A stretch of 64,000 bases of DNA. It comes from Candidatus Babeliales bacterium (lineage in GTDB: Bacteria > Babelota > Babeliae > Babelales > JANWKD01). The notes beneath the pieces were generated by a model. It did not search any database. It was not told the DNA's origin and worked only from the letters and a program-made list of their open reading frames with translations. Positions within the stretch are counted from its first letter, which is position 1; every line of letters begins with the position of its first letter. Position numbers and translations under genes: made by a program. This document shows positions 3,737 to 38,813 of the stretch, one piece after another. The DNA lies in contig CAVXJH010000007.1 of NCBI GenBank assembly GCA_963762115.1, positions 16,694 through 80,693 on the forward strand. Reading direction: 5' to 3'.

Positions 3737-4708
3737 TTAGTTGTTATGCAATTCAAACAAAATAGATTCCGGTGATTTATAAACAATAATTTGTTTGTTG
3801 GTACTATAAAGTGCACTTTGTGCTTTTTTTATAATACCAATAAATTTCTCTTTTTTTGATTTTTGATAGCTATTTAATGAAGCAGGCCATATAATTTCAG
3901 CACCATTTTTCAAAAGTAATTCAATAATATTAAATGCCTGTTGCGCAGATTTCCCTTTGGGCCAAATGGCAAATCGAGAAATTGCATCATATAAAGGCGT
4001 TTCATTATATCTAGCTGCATAATTTACCTCAGCTCCTAAATCAATTAATAATGAAACCATAGAATAATTAATCTCACGTATTGCAGTTCTAATTGGAGTT
4101 AGATTATCAGCACCAACTCCTTTGTTTACTTGTGCACCACGAGCAACTAAGTATTTAACAACTTCCTCAGTTCCATACCTAACTGCTGTATTTAAAGGCG
4201 TTGCATATGCATATTCACCATTAATATCTGCGCCTGCCTCAATTTCTTTTTTAATTTTTTCAATACGCGATTGCCTTTTTATAAGCTCAAACAGCTTTTG
4301 ACTTGATGGATGCACCGCACGAGAGCTTATAGGATAGCTCTTTAAAGGGCCTATTCTACTGCGAGCCAATTGACGAGACCTTTTCCCCAATTGACAAAAT
4401 TTTCTCCCAAATGAATTAATATGTTTTGGTTTATTTATAATTATTTTCGTGCCATATGATTTTTGTTTTGAAAATAAATTAGATTTGTCTTCCTTCATCG
4501 ATGAAGATACTTGATCCTCAATGTCAATAGACACACCTGCCAAAGCTGTTTCCTGTTCAGCAAATTTAAATTTCGGTCGTACATACAAAAATGATCCCGG
4601 ATTTAATTGCGCTCTTCTAACGTTTTCATCCTGCTTTTCTTGCGCCTCAATAGCCAAAGAATAAAAACCTAGACACATCTGCAGTAAAAAAATAGCTACA
4701 AATAACAT
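3737..4708 (-). CDS. ankyrin-repeat protein, secreted
   Basis: signal peptide; tandem ANK-like repeats (TPLNTAVRYGTEEVVKYLVARGAQVN, TPIRTAIREINYSMVSLLIDLGAEVN, TPLYDAIS...); AAGGA RBS 7 nt before ATG. Confidence 0.7.
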   Translation of the reverse strand: MLFVAIFLLQMCLGFYSLAIEAQEKQDENVRRAQLNPGSFLYVRPKFKFAEQETALAGVSIDIEDQVSSSMKEDKSNLFSKQKSYGTKIIINKPKHINSFGRKFCQLGKRSRQLARSRIGPLKSYPISSRAVHPSSQKLFELIKRQSRIEKIKKEIEAGADINGEYAYATPLNTAVRYGTEEVVKYLVARGAQVNKGVGADNLTPIRTAIREINYSMVSLLIDLGAEVNYAARYNETPLYDAISRFAIWPKGKSAQQAFNIIELLLKNGAEIIWPASLNSYQKSKKEKFIGIIKKAQSALYSTNKQIIVYKSPESILFELHNN

Positions 4709-30939: not shown

Positions 30940-31521
30940 ATGTATTTTAAAAAATCAATCTTCACCTTATTTTTAACAATTTCTATTTTCAGTACAACGT
31001 ATGCCATGGACCTAATATCAAAAGAAACTTTGCAAGATAAAATTATCACACCAGCAATTATCTTAGGAATCGGTGCAGCAAGTGGTGCTGCTCAAGCGAT
31101 AATTATGAATAAAATAAATACACATTATCATGCTAAAAACCATTGGAACATTTCTAAAAATGCCATCTTGGGAGCTTTATTTGCAATACCCGCAACAGTC
31201 ATAGCAACGGCAGAGATAGACTCTTTGCCAAAGTTAGATAATGAAGGCATCATTTGGTCCGTCGCATCTTCAACTACTTACAAAATGATAATATGCATGG
31301 GTCATTATTATTTTATAAAAAAAGCTTTCATCGAGCAGAACAACTTTTTTAATACGCCCGAAGCAAGAAAAAATCGAAAAACAACTAACGATCTTCAAGC
31401 TTCCAATTTTTTTCAAAGTAAGAGCAAGCATCACTCTGCGGCCATTTTTTTTCTCAATCCAACGATATCAATTGTATCAACCTTTTTGACGGCATCAATA
31501 CGCAATAATCTCGATCATTAA
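30940..31521 (+). CDS. hypothetical membrane protein (193 aa)
   Basis: signal/TM segments; stop codon overlaps the stop of the rodA 3' remnant (cattaaac). Confidence 0.45.
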   Translation: MYFKKSIFTLFLTISIFSTTYAMDLISKETLQDKIITPAIILGIGAASGAAQAIIMNKINTHYHAKNHWNISKNAILGALFAIPATVIATAEIDSLPKLDNEGIIWSVASSTTYKMIICMGHYYFIKKAFIEQNNFFNTPEARKNRKTTNDLQASNFFQSKSKHHSAAIFFLNPTISIVSTFLTASIRNNLDH

Positions 31522-31603: not shown

Positions 31604-32398
31604 TTATCCATTCACTGAAATAAATGGAACCATTTTCCCGGTAACGCGAGGCAAAACACCATCCCATTTTTCTATTGCCTTAAATTGCGCTTCAATTTCT
31701 TGTAGACGAATCAATTCTAACGTTACTGATTCTTTTTTGACTTGCAATGAGAACGCTTCCGCTTCAGCGCGAGCTCGCGTCTGCAATGCTTCTTCTTGCA
31801 CTTTTACGGTTAAATTTTTCGCCGTTTTTGCACTTTGTTCTGCAATTTGCTTATCTTCAACTGCTTTAATAAAATCGGGAGAAAAATCAAGATGAATAAA
31901 ATTGAAATCAATTAAATCTAAATAACGAGGCGCTAACCGTTCTTTTAATTCATTAATAACTTTCTCTTTTGCTTCGTGTCGACTTTGAATAAGATCTTCT
32001 GCCGTAAATTTGGCAATAACAGCTTTTACACTTTCCTGAGTAAATGGATCAATAATAACCCGATCAAAATGTATTCCGATTTCTTGATATAATTTTAATA
32101 CATCGCTAATTCTATAATTGATAACCATACCAACCGAAACAGTTTGTAAGTCACGTGACATACCTTTTGTTTCAATTGCCGCCTTATTAATTTGTGTGTT
32201 AATTTTAATGATAGAATCAATAAGAGGAATTTTATAATAAAATCCTGATATGTTTTCTGTACTAATTACTCTGCCCAACCGCAATTGAATGGCGGTAAAA
32301 CCAGGTTCAATGGTATAAAATGATAAAGGTAAAAGAAAAAAAACCAGAGAGATTATTGCCAACAAGATAAGAGTGAATGCAGTACGAATATAATTCAT
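31604..32398 (-). CDS. SPFH/band-7 (prohibitin/HflC-like) membrane protein
   Basis: N-terminal TM, SPFH domain features, C-terminal coiled coil. Confidence 0.7.
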   Translation of the reverse strand: MNYIRTAFTLILLAIISLVFFLLPLSFYTIEPGFTAIQLRLGRVISTENISGFYYKIPLIDSIIKINTQINKAAIETKGMSRDLQTVSVGMVINYRISDVLKLYQEIGIHFDRVIIDPFTQESVKAVIAKFTAEDLIQSRHEAKEKVINELKERLAPRYLDLIDFNFIHLDFSPDFIKAVEDKQIAEQSAKTAKNLTVKVQEEALQTRARAEAEAFSLQVKKESVTLELIRLQEIEAQFKAIEKWDGVLPRVTGKMVPFISVNG

Positions 32399-32477
32399 GT
32401 AACAATACTTTCGATGAGACTTTTAGAAATTAATTAAGATACTATAAGTATAAATATATACCTGAAATGCACAACAA

Positions 32478-32546
32478 TTAAACACCTACCCCCCTATCAA
32501 ACCTTCGCATGGCAATACCATTCAACCACCCCAAATTGCCCATTTG
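32478..32546 (-). repeat. rodA 3'-end remnant copy B (encodes ...QMGNLGWLNGIAMRRFDRGVGV*)
   Basis: ~50-nt near-identical to the rodA terminus at 33159..33210. Confidence 0.8.
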
Positions 32547-32619
32547 CACTAATTGCATAAATTCATCATACTAAATAAGTAATTATATTTTAATAAGCAC
32601 ATTCATACTAGAGAAAAAT

Positions 32620-33159
32620 TTGAATATTTATCTATCAAAAAAGCTATTATTATTGCTATTATCTTTATCCCTCAATCTATTCTGTCTTTTACCCATAGAT
32701 TCCCGTTTTTCCTTACAAACATTTAATAAAGAATCAGATAAAAATTGGATCATTAAGTTATTTAATGCAAATTATGAACACCTAGTTGATCAAAATGCTA
32801 AAGATTTTTCAATTGAATGGACATTAGACAATCTAAGGCTTTTTCCAGAGTATAAAGAAAAATTAATTATAAAAACTGCCACTATTAAAACTATTCCTGC
32901 TGGCTTTATAGCTTATTCTATAGACAATAAAAATAGAGGTAACATCGATATGCTTTGTATTGATTCCCAATGGCGTAGAAATGGATGTGGCTTCAAATTA
33001 TTAAATTACGCCGTAGAAGATTTAAAGCAAAAAGGTATTTCAAAAATAAAATTAGGGGTTACGAACATAGCTGCTCAAAAATTATATGAAAAATATGGTT
33101 TTAAAAAAAAGAAAAAATGGCCATATGGTGATTCTATTATTATGGTCTTATCTCTTTAA
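32620..33159 (+). CDS. GNAT-family N-acetyltransferase (with N-terminal signal/TM)
   Basis: acetyl-CoA motif WRRNGCGFKLL...KLGVTNIAAQKLYEKYGF; stop overlaps the rodA stop (ctttaaac). Confidence 0.65.
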   Translation: MNIYLSKKLLLLLLSLSLNLFCLLPIDSRFSLQTFNKESDKNWIIKLFNANYEHLVDQNAKDFSIEWTLDNLRLFPEYKEKLIIKTATIKTIPAGFIAYSIDNKNRGNIDMLCIDSQWRRNGCGFKLLNYAVEDLKQKGISKIKLGVTNIAAQKLYEKYGFKKKKKWPYGDSIIMVLSL

Positions 33160-34268: not shown

Positions 34269-34441
34269 GGGTATTCCTCATAAAACAGCATACAAATTGT
34301 AGTTAAAAAATAGATAATTTTAAGAAATTTGTCATGTATAAAGACAAAAGCCAATTTTAATTAAATAATCTATTTGACAATATTTAAAATTAAGAATATG
34401 ATTCTTTATAGTAATACGCTTTAAAATATCGAGGAGAAGCC

Positions 34442-36166
34442 ATGTTTAAGCAAATATATATAAAAATGTTTTCAATTTGCATTATAGCAGCCTTAACAAC
34501 TCAAAGTTTTGGCATGTTCATACTTACAAAAAAATTACATAAAAAAAACTGTGCATACGTTATGTATAGACAATCACAAAATGAAGAACAAGCAACAGTA
34601 TCATCTCATGCAAATAACCAAGAAACACTCTTTTCGGAAAAAGAAACTGATGCTCCTTTGGAAGCCTTAACAAGTTCCTCTGAAGAATCTGAAGAAACGG
34701 TGCAATCGAAAAGTATTTTTTCACGATTACTCGATTATTTTACCCCCGTACCAGCAACCGTAGAAGTTAACTCACACATTTATAATGGAAACAAAATTGA
34801 AATGTCTGAAAACCGTTGCATAAAACAAATCTATGTAACGAATCAATTTGGTACTCATGGTGGTGGCGATGCAAGTTGTGGCTATCAATCATTGAAAAAT
34901 GCTATTTATCTTATAAAGGCATTACAAGAATCTAGCACAACAGAGAGTTTAAATAACGATTTGAATAATCTTACTATTATCAATACTTTATTTGGACCAG
35001 TGCACAAAAACTCTGTCGGCACTTGGCGTGCAATCATCATGCAAAAGCGTGCTTTAATAGTATTCAAAAATTATATTTATCAACGCTTAGAACTTAAAAA
35101 ATTAGATGAAATACAAGAAAATACCTGTATACAATTTGAAAGCAAAAAACGTTTTCTTCTGAATAAAAGTAAAATTCGTGAGGTCTTTGCGACCTTACTC
35201 AATAAATATGCTCAAGAAGCAGCAGAAGCATTAACAAATGGCCAAACAACACAATTATATATTAATCCTGAACTTATCATTGAATATATTCAAAATAATT
35301 TAAATCCTGAAGTTATACAAGATCCTCAGGAATTTATAGAAGAAAGCTCCATTTGCTTAGATGAGAATCCAAGCATTGAATGTCATGACCTTGATGAACT
35401 ATTTGGTTTATTATATACCTACCTCCGAGAAAACAACACCATTGACACCTATATTAACCTTTCGTCAATAAAAACATTTGAGCTCTCCCTTGATAATTCA
35501 AAAGAGGCTTTTGATCTCTATAATAATAACAACTCAAATCCATCACAATTGGATGGTGATTGGCTCCAAGAAGAAGAAATTTATGCCTTAAAAAATCTTG
35601 AAGCAGCAGACAACATTCATTGTATGAAAGAAAGCAGAAATGGCCTATTGCATGGACTTGATTACAAGTTCACCATTATTGAAGATGTTAACGATTTAAC
35701 CGGCACACATGGTGACACTATTAATCACGAAATTTTCCAAGAAATAGAACTCAAATCACAAAAAGGTATTAATAAAGCAAAAACTGCCTTAGCAGCAGAT
35801 GAAATAAAAAAATATATCCATGCTTTTATTGTAGGAACTGCTGACAGATCTCGATCAACTCATGGTCATTGGTTTGTGTTACTGCTTTATAAGCATGACA
35901 ATATGCATGAATATATTGTTATGGATTCAGCCAATAACGCAAATCGCTTATATGACGAACGGGTGAAAAAAATTATTTCGCTACTAGAAAATCAAGATTT
36001 AACGGATAAAATTGTCGCATCACCTGAAGAATTAAAAGAACTTGAAAATAAAATTAGAACTAAAGTTGCTGAACATGATTTGGAAGCACTTGATCTTATT
36101 GAAAACTATAAACAATGTGGTGGAACAATTGATTTTTCTGAAGAAACACAAGCATTATTCTCATAA
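34442..36166 (+). CDS. secreted protein with C-terminal CE-clan (Ulp1-like) cysteine-protease-like arrangement
   Basis: signal peptide; ordered His (STHGHWFVLL), Asp (IVMDSANN, +19) and Cys (NYKQCGG, +64) near the C-terminus. Confidence 0.45.
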   Translation: MFKQIYIKMFSICIIAALTTQSFGMFILTKKLHKKNCAYVMYRQSQNEEQATVSSHANNQETLFSEKETDAPLEALTSSSEESEETVQSKSIFSRLLDYFTPVPATVEVNSHIYNGNKIEMSENRCIKQIYVTNQFGTHGGGDASCGYQSLKNAIYLIKALQESSTTESLNNDLNNLTIINTLFGPVHKNSVGTWRAIIMQKRALIVFKNYIYQRLELKKLDEIQENTCIQFESKKRFLLNKSKIREVFATLLNKYAQEAAEALTNGQTTQLYINPELIIEYIQNNLNPEVIQDPQEFIEESSICLDENPSIECHDLDELFGLLYTYLRENNTIDTYINLSSIKTFELSLDNSKEAFDLYNNNNSNPSQLDGDWLQEEEIYALKNLEAADNIHCMKESRNGLLHGLDYKFTIIEDVNDLTGTHGDTINHEIFQEIELKSQKGINKAKTALAADEIKKYIHAFIVGTADRSRSTHGHWFVLLLYKHDNMHEYIVMDSANNANRLYDERVKKIISLLENQDLTDKIVASPEELKELENKIRTKVAEHDLEALDLIENYKQCGGTIDFSEETQALFS

Positions 36167-36221: not shown

Positions 36222-36247
36222 CATGCCGCGTAATTAAGCGCGGCATG
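36222..36247. terminator. bidirectional terminator hairpin
   Basis: perfect inverted repeat catgccgcg-taattaa-cgcggcatg between convergent genes. Confidence 0.6.
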
Positions 36248-36254
36248 TGCCATT

Positions 36255-37103
36255 TTAAAAAATCTTATAATGACACACTTCTTCTAATTCTTGGATAATT
36301 TTTTCAATAACTATTAAAGGCAACCGAAACTGCTTAAGCATAGTAGGTTTTCTCAAAAGATCTCGACACAAAACATATCCTTTTTGAATAAGAATTCTCT
36401 TTTGTCGATTATTAAGCGATGTTAAAACAGTAACAGGATATAATGCATACTTATCGATAAGTTCCGCTAAATTGTTTTTTAAAGGGTATGACCATGCGAG
36501 TAACTTCATATCTACACATTGAGCATACGCAATTGCTTCAGTGGTAAAATTAGTATTGGTAATAAGCATTTTTTGAACATGTTTTTTTTCAGGAAATTGT
36601 TCAATTATTTTTTTTTGAATATCATCAAAACGAGATTTAAAATAAAGAGGAACTTTGCTATCAGATTTCAAACCCTGGCGATTATGAAATTTACATTCAC
36701 CCACCATTATAGTTACGTCTTTAGTAGCAATAAGATCAATTTCATGACTTATACAACTTCCCTGAACAAATTTTCTTGTTTGGGTTATATAACCTTGATG
36801 CAAAAATAATTGAGCAATAAAATCTTCAAATGGATATCCCGAAGGACCCAACTGAATTAAAGCATTTTTTAAACTATAACGAGCGGCAATAGAAGGTTTT
36901 TCTTGTTGCAAAGCATTAAATGCATATTTATAAATTTCATGAGTAGTCTTGAGCTCAGTATTTTTTTCAATACTCTCAATTAATGAATCAATTACTAATG
37001 GATCAGCACCAGATTTTTCTAATGATCTTCTAAATTTTTGAGCATTAAATTCTTGAAGTTCACCGGATGCTTTTTTGATAATTTTTTTCATAGGTTCAAT
37101 CAA
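36255..37103 (-). CDS. ATP-cone domain fused to PD-(D/E)xK (Mrr-cat-like) restriction-endonuclease-like domain
   Basis: N-terminal ATP-cone-like IIKKASGELQEFNAQKFRRSLEKSG; C-terminal GYPFEDFIAQLFLHQGY...EIDLIA...GECK nuclease motifs. Confidence 0.55.
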   Translation of the reverse strand: MIEPMKKIIKKASGELQEFNAQKFRRSLEKSGADPLVIDSLIESIEKNTELKTTHEIYKYAFNALQQEKPSIAARYSLKNALIQLGPSGYPFEDFIAQLFLHQGYITQTRKFVQGSCISHEIDLIATKDVTIMVGECKFHNRQGLKSDSKVPLYFKSRFDDIQKKIIEQFPEKKHVQKMLITNTNFTTEAIAYAQCVDMKLLAWSYPLKNNLAELIDKYALYPVTVLTSLNNRQKRILIQKGYVLCRDLLRKPTMLKQFRLPLIVIEKIIQELEEVCHYKIF

Positions 37104-37173: not shown

Positions 37174-38082
37174 TTATGATAACAAATCATTATTGCAATA
37201 AGAAACAGTTGGCAGCAAAGTATTTCTTTGTTGCTCAGGAATAATTCCCTTTTGATCAAAAAGCATTACAGGATCGCTATTAAAACACCGTGTTTTAAAA
37301 AGATTATAAAATTGAGCATAATAAAGGCGATCTAAAACAATATTCATTAAAGAAACATCTTCAACATGCTGCATAATGGGGCTTATCGCAGCAATAAGCT
37401 TTGGTTGCTCAGCTTCCAGGGCAAGAACCATAGAATAAGCAGAATTTAATATCGCAAATGCACGTTCATGCTCTTCACCATCAAAAGACATTTCATCAAA
37501 TGCTTTAAACATGGATGCAATACTATGTATTCTCATGGCAGATTTTTGATTATTCTCATGCGTTTGAGCGCACGAATTAATAAGCAAATCACTATTATTA
37601 TGCAAATATTCTTCAACAATTTTCATTCTTTCAAATGCAATCGCCTCAAAAATCTTTATTGCATTATTTTGTTCTTGTGAATCAAAATACTGCGTAACCA
37701 CTTGCCAAATTTTTTGTGTTTCTTTTCTATGCATACATAAACGATTAAGCTTTTTTATCAGATGAGTAAGCTTTTGTATTAATTCTTCTGAATTATCATT
37801 TTTTGTTTTTAATTTCCAAAGAGTCATCAAAATTTTTGATACCACTTTATCATACTTTATATCTGCCTGAGCATATTGATACGAAGCAAAAAGTGCGTTA
37901 GCAACAAGTTGTATTTCATCACCAGATACATGCTCAAAATAAGTATCAACAAGACATTCCATATGAGATGAAACCATTTTTGATAATGGGCTATTTGGTG
38001 ATTCTAAAATGAGAATTTCTTCGGAATACAATGAAAAAAGCGTTGCGTTCAAAAACAATACTACTAAAAAAACATTTTTCAT
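37174..38082 (-). CDS. hypothetical secreted protein (302 aa)
   Basis: signal peptide MKNVFLVVLFLNATLFSLYS. Confidence 0.45.
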   Translation of the reverse strand: MKNVFLVVLFLNATLFSLYSEEILILESPNSPLSKMVSSHMECLVDTYFEHVSGDEIQLVANALFASYQYAQADIKYDKVVSKILMTLWKLKTKNDNSEELIQKLTHLIKKLNRLCMHRKETQKIWQVVTQYFDSQEQNNAIKIFEAIAFERMKIVEEYLHNNSDLLINSCAQTHENNQKSAMRIHSIASMFKAFDEMSFDGEEHERAFAILNSAYSMVLALEAEQPKLIAAISPIMQHVEDVSLMNIVLDRLYYAQFYNLFKTRCFNSDPVMLFDQKGIIPEQQRNTLLPTVSYCNNDLLS

Positions 38083-38140: not shown

Positions 38141-38216
38141 TGGTCGGGGCGGCCAGACTCGAACTGGCGACCCCTCGCTCCCAAAGCGAGTGCGCTACCA
38201 ACTGCGCCACGCCCCG
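38141..38216 (-). tRNA. tRNA-Pro (anticodon TGG)
   Basis: reverse complement folds as cggggcg-acceptor, D-arm gcgcagttggtagcgc, anticodon loop tTGGg, T-arm, CCA encoded. Confidence 0.85.
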
Positions 38217-38311: not shown

Positions 38312-38554
38312 TTATTCTTTGTCGTCGCACGTATCATTAAAATCAATTTTGAAATTAATTTTTTTTTGTTTAATTTTTTGTACAAAACCAAATTTAGTTT
38401 CAAAAAGCATAATAAGACCGCAATAAACCAGAATACTACCCAAAACTATTTTAAAGATTGGAATATCTAGGTTAAAAATAGCTTTCAATAATACCGTAAT
38501 ACCCAAGAGTAATAACAGCACACCGGCCAAAAAATTTCCATCCAAAAAATTCAT
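38312..38554 (-). CDS. possible small membrane protein (81 aa)
   Basis: the track ORF extends over tRNA-His; only the part from MNFLDGNF onward is plausible coding; no clear RBS. Confidence 0.2.
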   Translation of the reverse strand: MNFLDGNFLAGVLLLLLGITVLLKAIFNLDIPIFKIVLGSILVYCGLIMLFETKFGFVQKIKQKKINFKIDFNDTCDDKE

Positions 38555-38571
38555 AGAAAGCCCCAAAAAAA

Positions 38572-38648
38572 TGGGGTGAGTGGTGGGGCTCGAACCCACG
38601 ACCCTCAGAGCCACAACCTGATGCTCTACCAACTGAGCTACACTCACC
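38572..38648 (-). tRNA. tRNA-His (anticodon GTG) with G-1
   Basis: reverse complement: extra 5' G pairing with C73, anticodon loop tGTGg, T-arm, CCA; followed by cccc-tttttt-gggg hairpin. Confidence 0.85.
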
Positions 38649-38813
38649 ATAAATTATTTTAATTGCTTTTAAATGTACTGTTTTTTACGTCAAATTGCAA
38701 CCACTGCTTTATTTTAATGTATACATCAGGCAACCTTGTCTGTCTGAAGCCCTCATGCTACACTAAAAGCCTTCAATAGAGGAACTTTTAATAAACAATG
38801 GTAAAAAGCTACA

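Follow-up and report, generated by a model that had tools for sequence, protein, structure and literature searches.

A gene in a 64,000-nucleotide (nt) stretch of DNA from a Candidatus Babeliales bacterium (contig CAVXJH010000007.1, positions 16,694 to 80,693; hereafter, the window) probably encodes a circularly permuted relative of the clan CE cysteine proteases, as judged from sequence profiles. The open reading frame (ORF), at 34442..36166 on the forward strand, was confirmed, with an ATG start and 574 amino acids (aa) ahead of the stop codon; the features of the gene given below lie on the same strand. Its product belongs to a family centred on Dependentiae/Babeliales that has no entry in Pfam, NCBIfam, or the PDB. 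Cys146, His476, and Asp495 are very likely the active site of a papain-fold enzyme, an assignment that draws on residue conservation and on a predicted structure. It is moderately likely that the protein is an exported cysteine isopeptidase with a permuted Ulp1/SENP-type (Peptidase_C48) domain, in which the Gln/Cys module (aa 105-215) would have moved to the front to give the order Gln135-Cys146...Trp374...His476-Trp477...Asp495, with an insertion of ~150 aa at the junction of the former termini. In such an enzyme, Cys146 and His476 would form a thiolate-imidazolium pair, Asp495 would orient the His, and Gln135 would presumably provide the oxyanion hole, with Trp374 and Trp477 forming a narrow tunnel for a Gly-Gly tail only, like the equivalent Trp pair in SENPs. 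Given a Gly-Gly-selective tunnel, the enzyme would strip ubiquitin (Ub) or ubiquitin-like proteins (Ubls), and, following Sec-dependent export, it may do so on protist host proteins or on the surface of the bacterium or vacuole.

A Two-Module Protein Family

Five close homologues were found with a word-indexed search, and a query with a 70-sequence profile returned the same five. When 1.84 billion cluster representatives were searched with a profile, 380 relatives were recovered at E <= 1e-3 (193 at E <= 1e-10), each standing for a cluster at roughly 50% identity, and most of these relatives align with the query in two stretches, at about residues 125-220 and 445-520. The named genomes that carry the family are all Babeliales, Dependentiae, or Babelota, bar one short contig binned as Alteromonas. 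This 12.7-kb contig of 35% GC (JBLICC010000025.1; locus L012), assigned to Alteromonas naphthalenivorans, is most likely a binning error and not evidence of the family outside Dependentiae. A literature search on CE-clan permutants and on deubiquitinases (DUBs) of Dependentiae/Babeliales found no description of the family.

Conservation was scored in 70 diverse homologues with 16-61% identity. Q135, C146, H476, and S496 are invariant, and Q129, V132, S145, G147, Y148, W195, R196, G372, W477, and D495 are conserved in at least 90% of the sequences. Cys146 (codon at 34877..34879) is the conserved candidate for the nucleophile; it lies in the motif Q135-x10-ASCGY, within a box at aa 129-153 whose family consensus is Q-x2-V-x2-Q-x(5-10)-GG-x-A-S-C-G-Y-[HQ]-x-L-K-N. 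An earlier, sequence-only reading of this DNA had described the N-terminal region as having no recognisable homology, and the box was overlooked. The predicted general base, His476, and the predicted aromatic gatekeeper, Trp477, are encoded at 35867..35872, and the predicted third triad residue, Asp495 (Asn in a few relatives), is encoded together with Ser496 at 35924..35929. An aromatic residue follows the His in 126 of 127 representatives (W in 117, Y in 5, and F in 4; the remaining one has C), a gatekeeper position being one where this holds for >90% of members (PMC7391069).

About 330 residues separate Cys146 from His476. Across the family, this distance is bimodal, at either 110-190 or 250-360 aa; the short forms lack query residues ~216-365, and in their alignment (A4) WR..I..R is joined directly to G[DE]WL. 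The short-form relatives thus define a two-module core. The first module, at aa 105-215 (34754..35086), comprises beta-strands, Q129, V132, Q135, the ASC146GY...KN helix, and the LFG...G-W195-R196 helix. The second, an Ulp1-like Trp/His/Asp module at aa 366-520 (35537..36001), carries the G-[DE]-W-L-x3-E-I, His-Trp, and Asp-Ser motifs, here as G372-D-W374-L...EI, a strand, a helix, YIHAFIVGT, GH476W477, MD495S496, and an R..D...LLE helix. Between the two lies the insertion domain (aa ~216-365; 35087..35536), an alpha/beta unit that is absent from short-form relatives and is modelled with a predicted local distance difference test (pLDDT) score >90; searches for a family match in Pfam and for a fold match in the PDB with Foldseek both gave nothing for it.

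A first AlphaFold2 (AF2) model, built on a 5-sequence alignment, had a pLDDT of 62 and was too poor for use. The model built on a 70-sequence alignment reached a mean pLDDT of 87.4 and a predicted template modelling score (pTM) of 0.84, with pLDDT <50 at residues 20-33, 62-91, and 93-99. In this model, C146 opens the helix 146-162, H476 sits just before strand 477-485, and D495 follows directly after the adjacent strand 488-494; as predicted, this placement of Cys, His, and Asp is the standard papain-like one. Foldseek found no match in the PDB at E < 0.5, and the sole match with appreciable probability (0.47) was LupA (5dgg). Among viral structures (BFVD), there were two marginal Klosneuvirus matches to uncharacterised proteins of amoeba giant viruses, A0A3G4ZWX5 from Edafosvirus (E 4e-3, probability 0.97) and A0A1V0SFN0 from Hokovirus (E 9e-3, probability 0.72), which are possible distant viral homologues; no relatives emerged from a motif scan of viral contigs, which left the BFVD matches uncorroborated.

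Relationship to Clan CE

The canonical order of motifs in clan CE is Trp(WLxD)...His-Trp...Asp...Gln...Cys. All of the clan's motifs (the W-L-x-D/E helix, His-Trp, Asp-Ser, and Gln...Cys-Gly) are present and conserved in the protein, in order with SENP8 only after un-permutation. The order His, Asp/Asn, (Gln), Cys is not found in the native sequence, the sole Cys past Asp495 being Cys559, which is not conserved, and the Pfam family PF02902 (Peptidase_C48), proposed as a check by the sequence-only reading, does not match the protein even at E <= 10. Because the defining residue order is absent and the Pfam threshold is not reached, the protein is not filed as a CE/C48 member.

The likeness to the clan is carried by the C-terminal module. 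When a 42-sequence profile of aa 366-520 (A5) was run against all PDB sequences, 12 matches were obtained, and 12/12 belong to clan CE; they include RickCE (E 2.7e-5, 27.6 bits), the ULP_PROTEASE chain 7fiu (3e-4), and then 6gzu, SENP8, and SENP1. PF02902 itself is passed by two relatives fused to AAA+ domains, P0094 (26.1 bits) and P0149 (28.6 bits; cutoff 20.7), in matches that reach only to about position 157 of 217, i.e., the Trp/His/Asp part. Weaker matches of other members were to C48, ElaD/SseL_C, and C57, all of clan CE, and in one case to Josephin. Finally, box profiles searched with hmmsearch against four sequences entered by hand scored ~0 bits and were uninformative. These profiles give good support for homology between the C-terminal module and CE proteases. 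The relation to clan CE claimed by the sequence-only reading is therefore retained for the HW...DS segment, which is homologous to the His/Asp region of Ulp1/CE enzymes and finds CE-clan PDB chains only, but not for the residue order on which that reading was built.

Evidence for a Probable Circular Permutation

An un-permuted construct was made by placing the His/Asp module ahead of the Gln/Cys module (C+N), with the insertion removed. Un-permuted P0094 scored 34.4 bits against PF02902 over positions 79-192, compared with 28.2 bits in native order (positions 79-127), 27.7 bits for the C-half alone (78-127), and 26.8 bits for the C-half followed by the reversed N-half (79-140). Similarly, un-permuted P0149 scored 34.0 bits over positions 1-185, compared with controls of 30.5-31.6 bits that extend up to positions 140-143.

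Profiles were also compared with hhalign, using 71 family sequences as the query and a C48 template of eight SENP8 sequences (human plus seven orthologues) together with SENP1, SENP2, and Ulp1 sequences entered by hand. The un-permuted C+N query aligned with a probability of 82% (E 1e-5, score 42.5, 183 columns), versus 35% for the native N+C order (E 3.9e-4, score 32.4, 116 columns), 40% for C alone (E 3e-4, score 31.3, 116 columns), 25% for C plus reversed N (E 7.8e-4, score 30.9, 103 columns), and 0.9% for N alone (E 0.063, score 16.3, 52 columns on the C48 Cys region). Across runs, the probability was ~35-46% before and 77-82% after the Cys module was moved behind the His/Asp module. With a trimmed template, C+N scored 39.8, and 39 of 40 column shuffles scored no higher than 37.7; shuffle outliers with scores of 134-147 arose from a fault of hhalign in handling alignments with gap-only columns at their end and were gone after trimming or realignment. 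The C+N alignment pairs W374-L375 with W26-L27 of SENP8, H476-W477 with H102-W103, D495 with D119, Q135 with Q156/157, C146 with C163, and W195 with W202. That the N-terminal module is the CE Gln/Cys helix, and hence that the domain is circularly permuted, is moderately supported by these alignments, and permutation offers the simplest account of the nucleophile's origin; its direction is one that we infer.

Several observations weigh against a permuted CE origin. Single-sequence searches of the protein against Pfam, NCBIfam, and the PDB (phmmer) gave no match, and no protease was retrieved from the PDB with the Cys-box profile by itself. Un-permutation did not raise the PF02902 score of P0133 (19.3 bits, versus 19.6 in native order), yet the alignment, which had ended at position 115, now reached 179. 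Un-permutation brings a modest gain of +6 hhalign units, and this shrinks to +1.5 (34.4 versus 32.9) without context pseudocounts. With a template of database-derived SENP8 orthologues only, the gain persists at a lower probability (43% versus 13-19%). Finally, a 24-sequence un-permuted profile lost its CE matches in the PDB and performed worse than the 42-sequence profile of the C-half.

The protein could also be a non-permuted DUB of clan CA, i.e., a very divergent Josephin, OTU/Lot, or USP enzyme whose HW...DS likeness to clan CE arose by convergence; we consider this unlikely. A Josephin-like reading was favoured at first on motif resemblance. That reading was dropped after native-order hhalign against Josephins gave a probability of 2.6% over 33 columns around the Cys only; a whole-domain profile match to Josephin (MEROPS C86, PF02099), with its Gln-Cys...His...Asn, was not found. 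The profile similarity to bacterial Josephin-like DUBs/clippases (SnJOS1/2, BpJOS, and PaJOS; bioRxiv 10.1101/2024.07.24.604956) likewise ends at the Cys helix, and the C-terminal half matches CE enzymes, not Josephins. A clan CA origin is further opposed by the absence of any CA-clan chain among the PDB matches of the C-half profile, by the two members that pass the C48 gathering cutoff, and by the five key residues that un-permutation lines up in order with SENP8.

Predicted Function and Export

Under the permuted CE interpretation, a host-directed Ub/Ubl protease is the best functional reading, and a Ub/Ubl deconjugase delivered to the host seems somewhat likely from the sequence features described here. 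Both the substrate (Ub, NEDD8, SUMO, or another Ubl) and delivery to the host are points that we infer. An aromatic amino acid following the catalytic His has been shown to be 477-fold enriched in DUBs/Ubl proteases, where it contacts the penultimate Gly of ubiquitin (PMC7391069).

Relatives of the protein also suggest a link with ubiquitin. The paralogue P0128 has three RanBP2/NZF fingers (PF00641, E 5e-11; W-x-C-x2-C-T-F-x-N, the TF signature), and its upstream neighbour, another family member, has two. Fingers of the NZF type that bear the T-F signature bind ubiquitin. In locus L016 (4248-9265; also in L017 and L018), three family paralogues stand in tandem, the first two with 2-3 NZF fingers behind a signal peptide, and are followed by pentapeptide and ankyrin-pentapeptide genes in otherwise bacterial surroundings (ftsH, exbBD-tonB), forming an apparent effector island. 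Larger members of 700-1500 aa (P0091, P0094, P0098, P0133, P0144, and P0149) combine the protease domain with one or two classical AAA+ ATPase domains (PF00004 with AAA_lid_3). The AAA+-fused members, including those at L009 3552-8078, L011 4767-8297, and L014 4773-8027, are usually found behind a signal peptide and are the most Peptidase_C48-like of the family. Other relatives are fused to ankyrin and pentapeptide repeats, and the paralogues P0005 and P0009 of one Babeliales metagenome-assembled genome (MAG) adjoin ankyrin proteins.

The predicted N-terminal signal or anchor, delimited by hydropathy at aa 1-24 (34442..34513), consists of K3, K8, a hydrophobic core, and the putative cleavage site SFG|M. 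The signal-like hydrophobic segment reported by the sequence-only reading is indeed present, spanning residues 9-28. Small residues occupy positions -3/-1 of the putative site in 5/5 close homologues, in which the n-region lysines K3 and K8 and the hydrophobic core are also conserved, and an N-terminal hydrophobic segment is found in 107 of 132 family representatives (81%). By its sequence, the N-terminus would be cleaved and the protein exported. Signal peptides are typical of presumed effectors in Dependentiae; in Chromulinavorax, a cultured member, they occur on 44% of proteins and 78% of ankyrin proteins, and the proteins that carry them are thought to exit via Sec, perhaps in vesicles (PMC6561590).

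Host delivery and deconjugase activity also have points against them. The basic KKLHKK that follows the hydrophobic core is atypical for a cleaved signal peptide, and a Sec signal takes a protein no further than the periplasm. Nor can proteases be told apart from acetyltransferases of the CE clan by the aromatic motif, as lpg1949 demonstrates (PMC7391069).

An alternative is a papain-fold hydrolase that works in the envelope or periplasm of the bacterium itself, for instance on peptidoglycan, lipoproteins, or Gly-Gly leader peptides, and that has no host target; it would fit the Sec-type N-terminus, the divergently adjacent rodA/ftsW gene, and the lack of a known route from periplasm to host. 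Cleavage after Gly-Gly and an aromatic residue following the His are likewise features of C39-type peptidases, which counts in favour of such a hydrolase. We nevertheless judge a purely envelope-directed role to be rather unlikely. Less probable again is an enzyme with the same permuted fold and triad that acts as an acetyltransferase (YopJ/LegCE-like) or has dual activity. CE-clan enzymes with the same triad do include acetyltransferases, and the aromatic residue after the His is non-discriminating (PMC7391069). However, the best matches of the family are proteases/DUBs (RickCE, SENP8, SENP1, C48, ElaD/SseL_C, and C57) rather than C55, the family of YopJ, the two tunnel tryptophans are both conserved, and ubiquitin-binding NZF fingers are fused to paralogues.

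The Fate of the C-Terminal Cysteine

The sequence-only reading had identified a canonical CE-clan (Ulp1/adenain-type) triad of His476-Asp495-Cys559, and its positions were exact: HGHW at 474-477, MDSANN at 494-499, and KQCGG at 557-561, with Asp495 19 residues after His476 and Cys559 64 after Asp495. Such a triad is barely credible despite its HW and DS motifs, correct spacing, and CE-like segment, since Cys559 is not conserved (Met in P0004, and lost with the tail in P0005), the Gln directly before it is not the CE arrangement (in which the Gln lies several residues upstream, as with Q156/157 and C163 of SENP8), PF02902 does not match the protein, and an invariant Cys146 with an invariant upstream Gln exists instead. 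Conservation of the triad among orthologues had been set beforehand as the refuting test, and it is the proposed Cys559 that fails it. In most relatives, the chain stops 0-20 residues past the helix next after the DS box, which rules out a Cys further downstream as part of the family's active site. The protein has nine Cys in total, which makes one falling 40-80 residues past the Asp unremarkable. The case illustrates that choosing a triad by motif order alone can select the wrong nucleophile.

Cys559 lies in the clade-variable helical tail (aa 521-574; 36002..36163; pLDDT 91-96), which contains Y-K-Q-C559-G-G in a predicted helix-loop-helix. Its position is hydrophobic across relatives (C/M/W/L/F/A), within a clade-variable Y-x-x-hydrophobic-G-G motif. 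In fuller form, this motif reads Y-[KES]-x-[C/M/W/L/F/A]-G-G-x3-F (here 36101-36139, aa 554-566), and 21 of the 66 relatives with long tails have it 58-80 aa past the DS box, e.g., P0010, P0014, P0030, P0042, P0065, and P0084. Its density is 23 matches per 10,567 tail residues versus 9 per 27,585 elsewhere. In the tail of a protease predicted to be Gly-Gly-specific, this Gly-Gly could serve for autoprocessing or as a pseudo-substrate, or could just form the turn of a helix-loop-helix.

Between the signal and the Gln/Cys module lies a basic amphipathic stretch with a low-confidence linker (aa 25-104; 34514..34753), the length of which varies among orthologues. Within this otherwise disordered linker, a short helix is predicted at 34550-34610 (aa 38-56; YVMYRQSQNEEQ..., pLDDT up to 93) that is conserved among close orthologues only, as K-N-x-Y-x-Y-V-x2-R-Q, and it may be a pro-segment or regulator that packs against the catalytic domain.

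Comparison with Known Systems

The closest known family is that of Ulp1/SENP and the bacterial CE effectors (PF02902; RickCE, ChlaDUB, SseL/ElaD, XopD, NopD, and CidB). Shared with these enzymes are a WL-x-[DE]-E-I helix that bears the first of the tunnel Trp residues, the His-Trp and Asp-Ser motifs, and the Gln...[S/D]-Cys-Gly-aromatic box, together with significant similarity over aa 366-520, a full-length match once the domain is un-permuted, and a predicted specificity for Gly-Gly tails. Unlike them, the Babeliales protein has its Gln/Cys module N-terminal of the Trp/His/Asp module, an insertion of ~150 aa at the old termini, and no match to PF02902, and it bears a Sec-type signal instead of the signals for delivery by type III or type IV secretion systems that are found on CE effectors.

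The closest conceptual precedent, as a bacterial effector DUB with a permuted Cys helix, is EmcB/CoxDUB of Coxiella and Legionellales. These effector DUBs are related to a eukaryotic family by circular permutation of the helix that bears the catalytic Cys, and the re-ordering of segments in EmcB keeps activity (PMC12501173). EmcB is derived from OTU enzymes with its Cys moved C-terminally, whereas the Babeliales family would derive from CE/Ulp1 with its Cys moved N-terminally; furthermore, EmcB proteins are much smaller, are Dot/Icm substrates, and have no sequence relationship to the Babeliales family. Papain-fold helix permutations are known in other families as well, and LupA and LotA have been described as circular permutants of each other (PMC10318531). 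The Legionella Lot OTUs resemble the Babeliales protein in having a large insertion between their Cys and His elements. Finally, P0128 and its neighbour, with 2-3 T-F NZF fingers N-terminal of the protease domain, resemble the TRABID-type combination of NZF and DUB. The window protein itself differs from TRABID in having no NZF finger, the catalytic domain is unrelated to OTU, and the P0128 fingers are predicted to bind ubiquitin.

To our knowledge, bacterial DUBs so far belong almost all to the OTU and CE families, with a few of the USP, Josephin, VTD, and EmcB types, and we know of no characterised effectors in Dependentiae. Tentatively, the window protein may be the founding example of a class of Ulp1/CE-derived Ub/Ubl proteases in which the Cys module is permuted to the Cys-first order of papain, comprising ~380 Dependentiae clusters at 50% identity, with insertions and with NZF, ankyrin, and AAA+ fusions. 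The family would have been missed by domain searches because 330 residues separate its Cys and His, whose order is "wrong" for the family that its motifs resemble. If true, this class would provide a sequence-level bridge between MEROPS clans CE and CA, as well as evidence that these little-studied protist parasites export, via Sec, a large set of tools against the ubiquitin system of the host. If active, the enzyme would represent a new DUB/ULP architecture and a natural experiment in circularly permuting the papain/CE fold, complementing EmcB; it would also offer candidate tools with new linkage or Ubl specificities, and a first way into the manipulation of protist hosts by Babeliales.

The Gene and Its Surroundings

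The window is AT-rich, with 31-40% GC. A Shine-Dalgarno sequence, GAGGAG, lies at 34431..34436, 5 nt before the ATG, and it supports Met1 as the start, not Met9, which another gene caller chose for P0001. Further upstream, at 34374..34402, a promoter-like site (TTGACA-17 nt-TATGAT) agrees with the consensus at 11/12 positions, as a consensus match only; 13 sites of the TTGACA/TATGAT type were found in the region, versus 10.2 expected from shuffles. Downstream, a hairpin with a 9-bp GC-rich stem (CATGCCGCG ... CGCGGCATG) was read from the sequence at 36222..36247, between the ends of convergent genes. It is probably a bidirectional terminator; a simple terminator scan did not report it.

The immediate neighbours of the protease gene are housekeeping in character: RuvB, an SPFH protein, GNAT, RodA/FtsW, an ATP-cone/Mrr protein, SbcC, and RpoA. 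The neighbouring ankyrin-repeat proteins invoked by the sequence-only reading exist only in a loose sense, the closest being encoded at 3737-4708, 30 kb away. With the 14-sequence family alignment used to retrieve related loci, a syntenic orthologue was found in a Babeliales MAG (OY969622.1), flanked by rodA and sbcC. Identity to that locus is 46% for the protease versus 91% for RuvB and 79% for RodA; synteny together with this low identity between conserved flanks indicates a vertically inherited, fast-evolving gene.

Other genes nearby also merit mention. Two flanking ORFs, at 30940-31521 (+; 193 aa) and 37174-38082 (-; 302 aa), each encode a hydrophobic segment at the N-terminus, and neither is matched by Pfam; their orthologues in the syntenic Babeliales locus share 37% and 52% identity, respectively, versus 79-91% for housekeeping proteins; they may be further fast-evolving exported proteins. 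The gene convergent with that of the protease, at 36255-37103 (-), encodes an ATP-cone fused to an Mrr-like restriction-endonuclease domain, with weak Pfam matches for both. This gene and the SPFH and GNAT genes (31604-33159) are missing from the syntenic locus L003. The GNAT acetyltransferase gene, at 32620-33159 (+), starts with TTG, and the N-terminus of its product resembles a signal peptide (MNIYLSKKLLLLLLSLSLNLFCLL), an unusual feature in a GNAT; this gene and the convergent rodA/ftsW share 4 nt at their 3' ends. Finally, tRNA-Pro(TGG) is located at 38141-38216 (-) and tRNA-His(GTG) at 38572-38647 (-), the latter crossed by a 112-aa ORF at 38312-38650 that is probably spurious.

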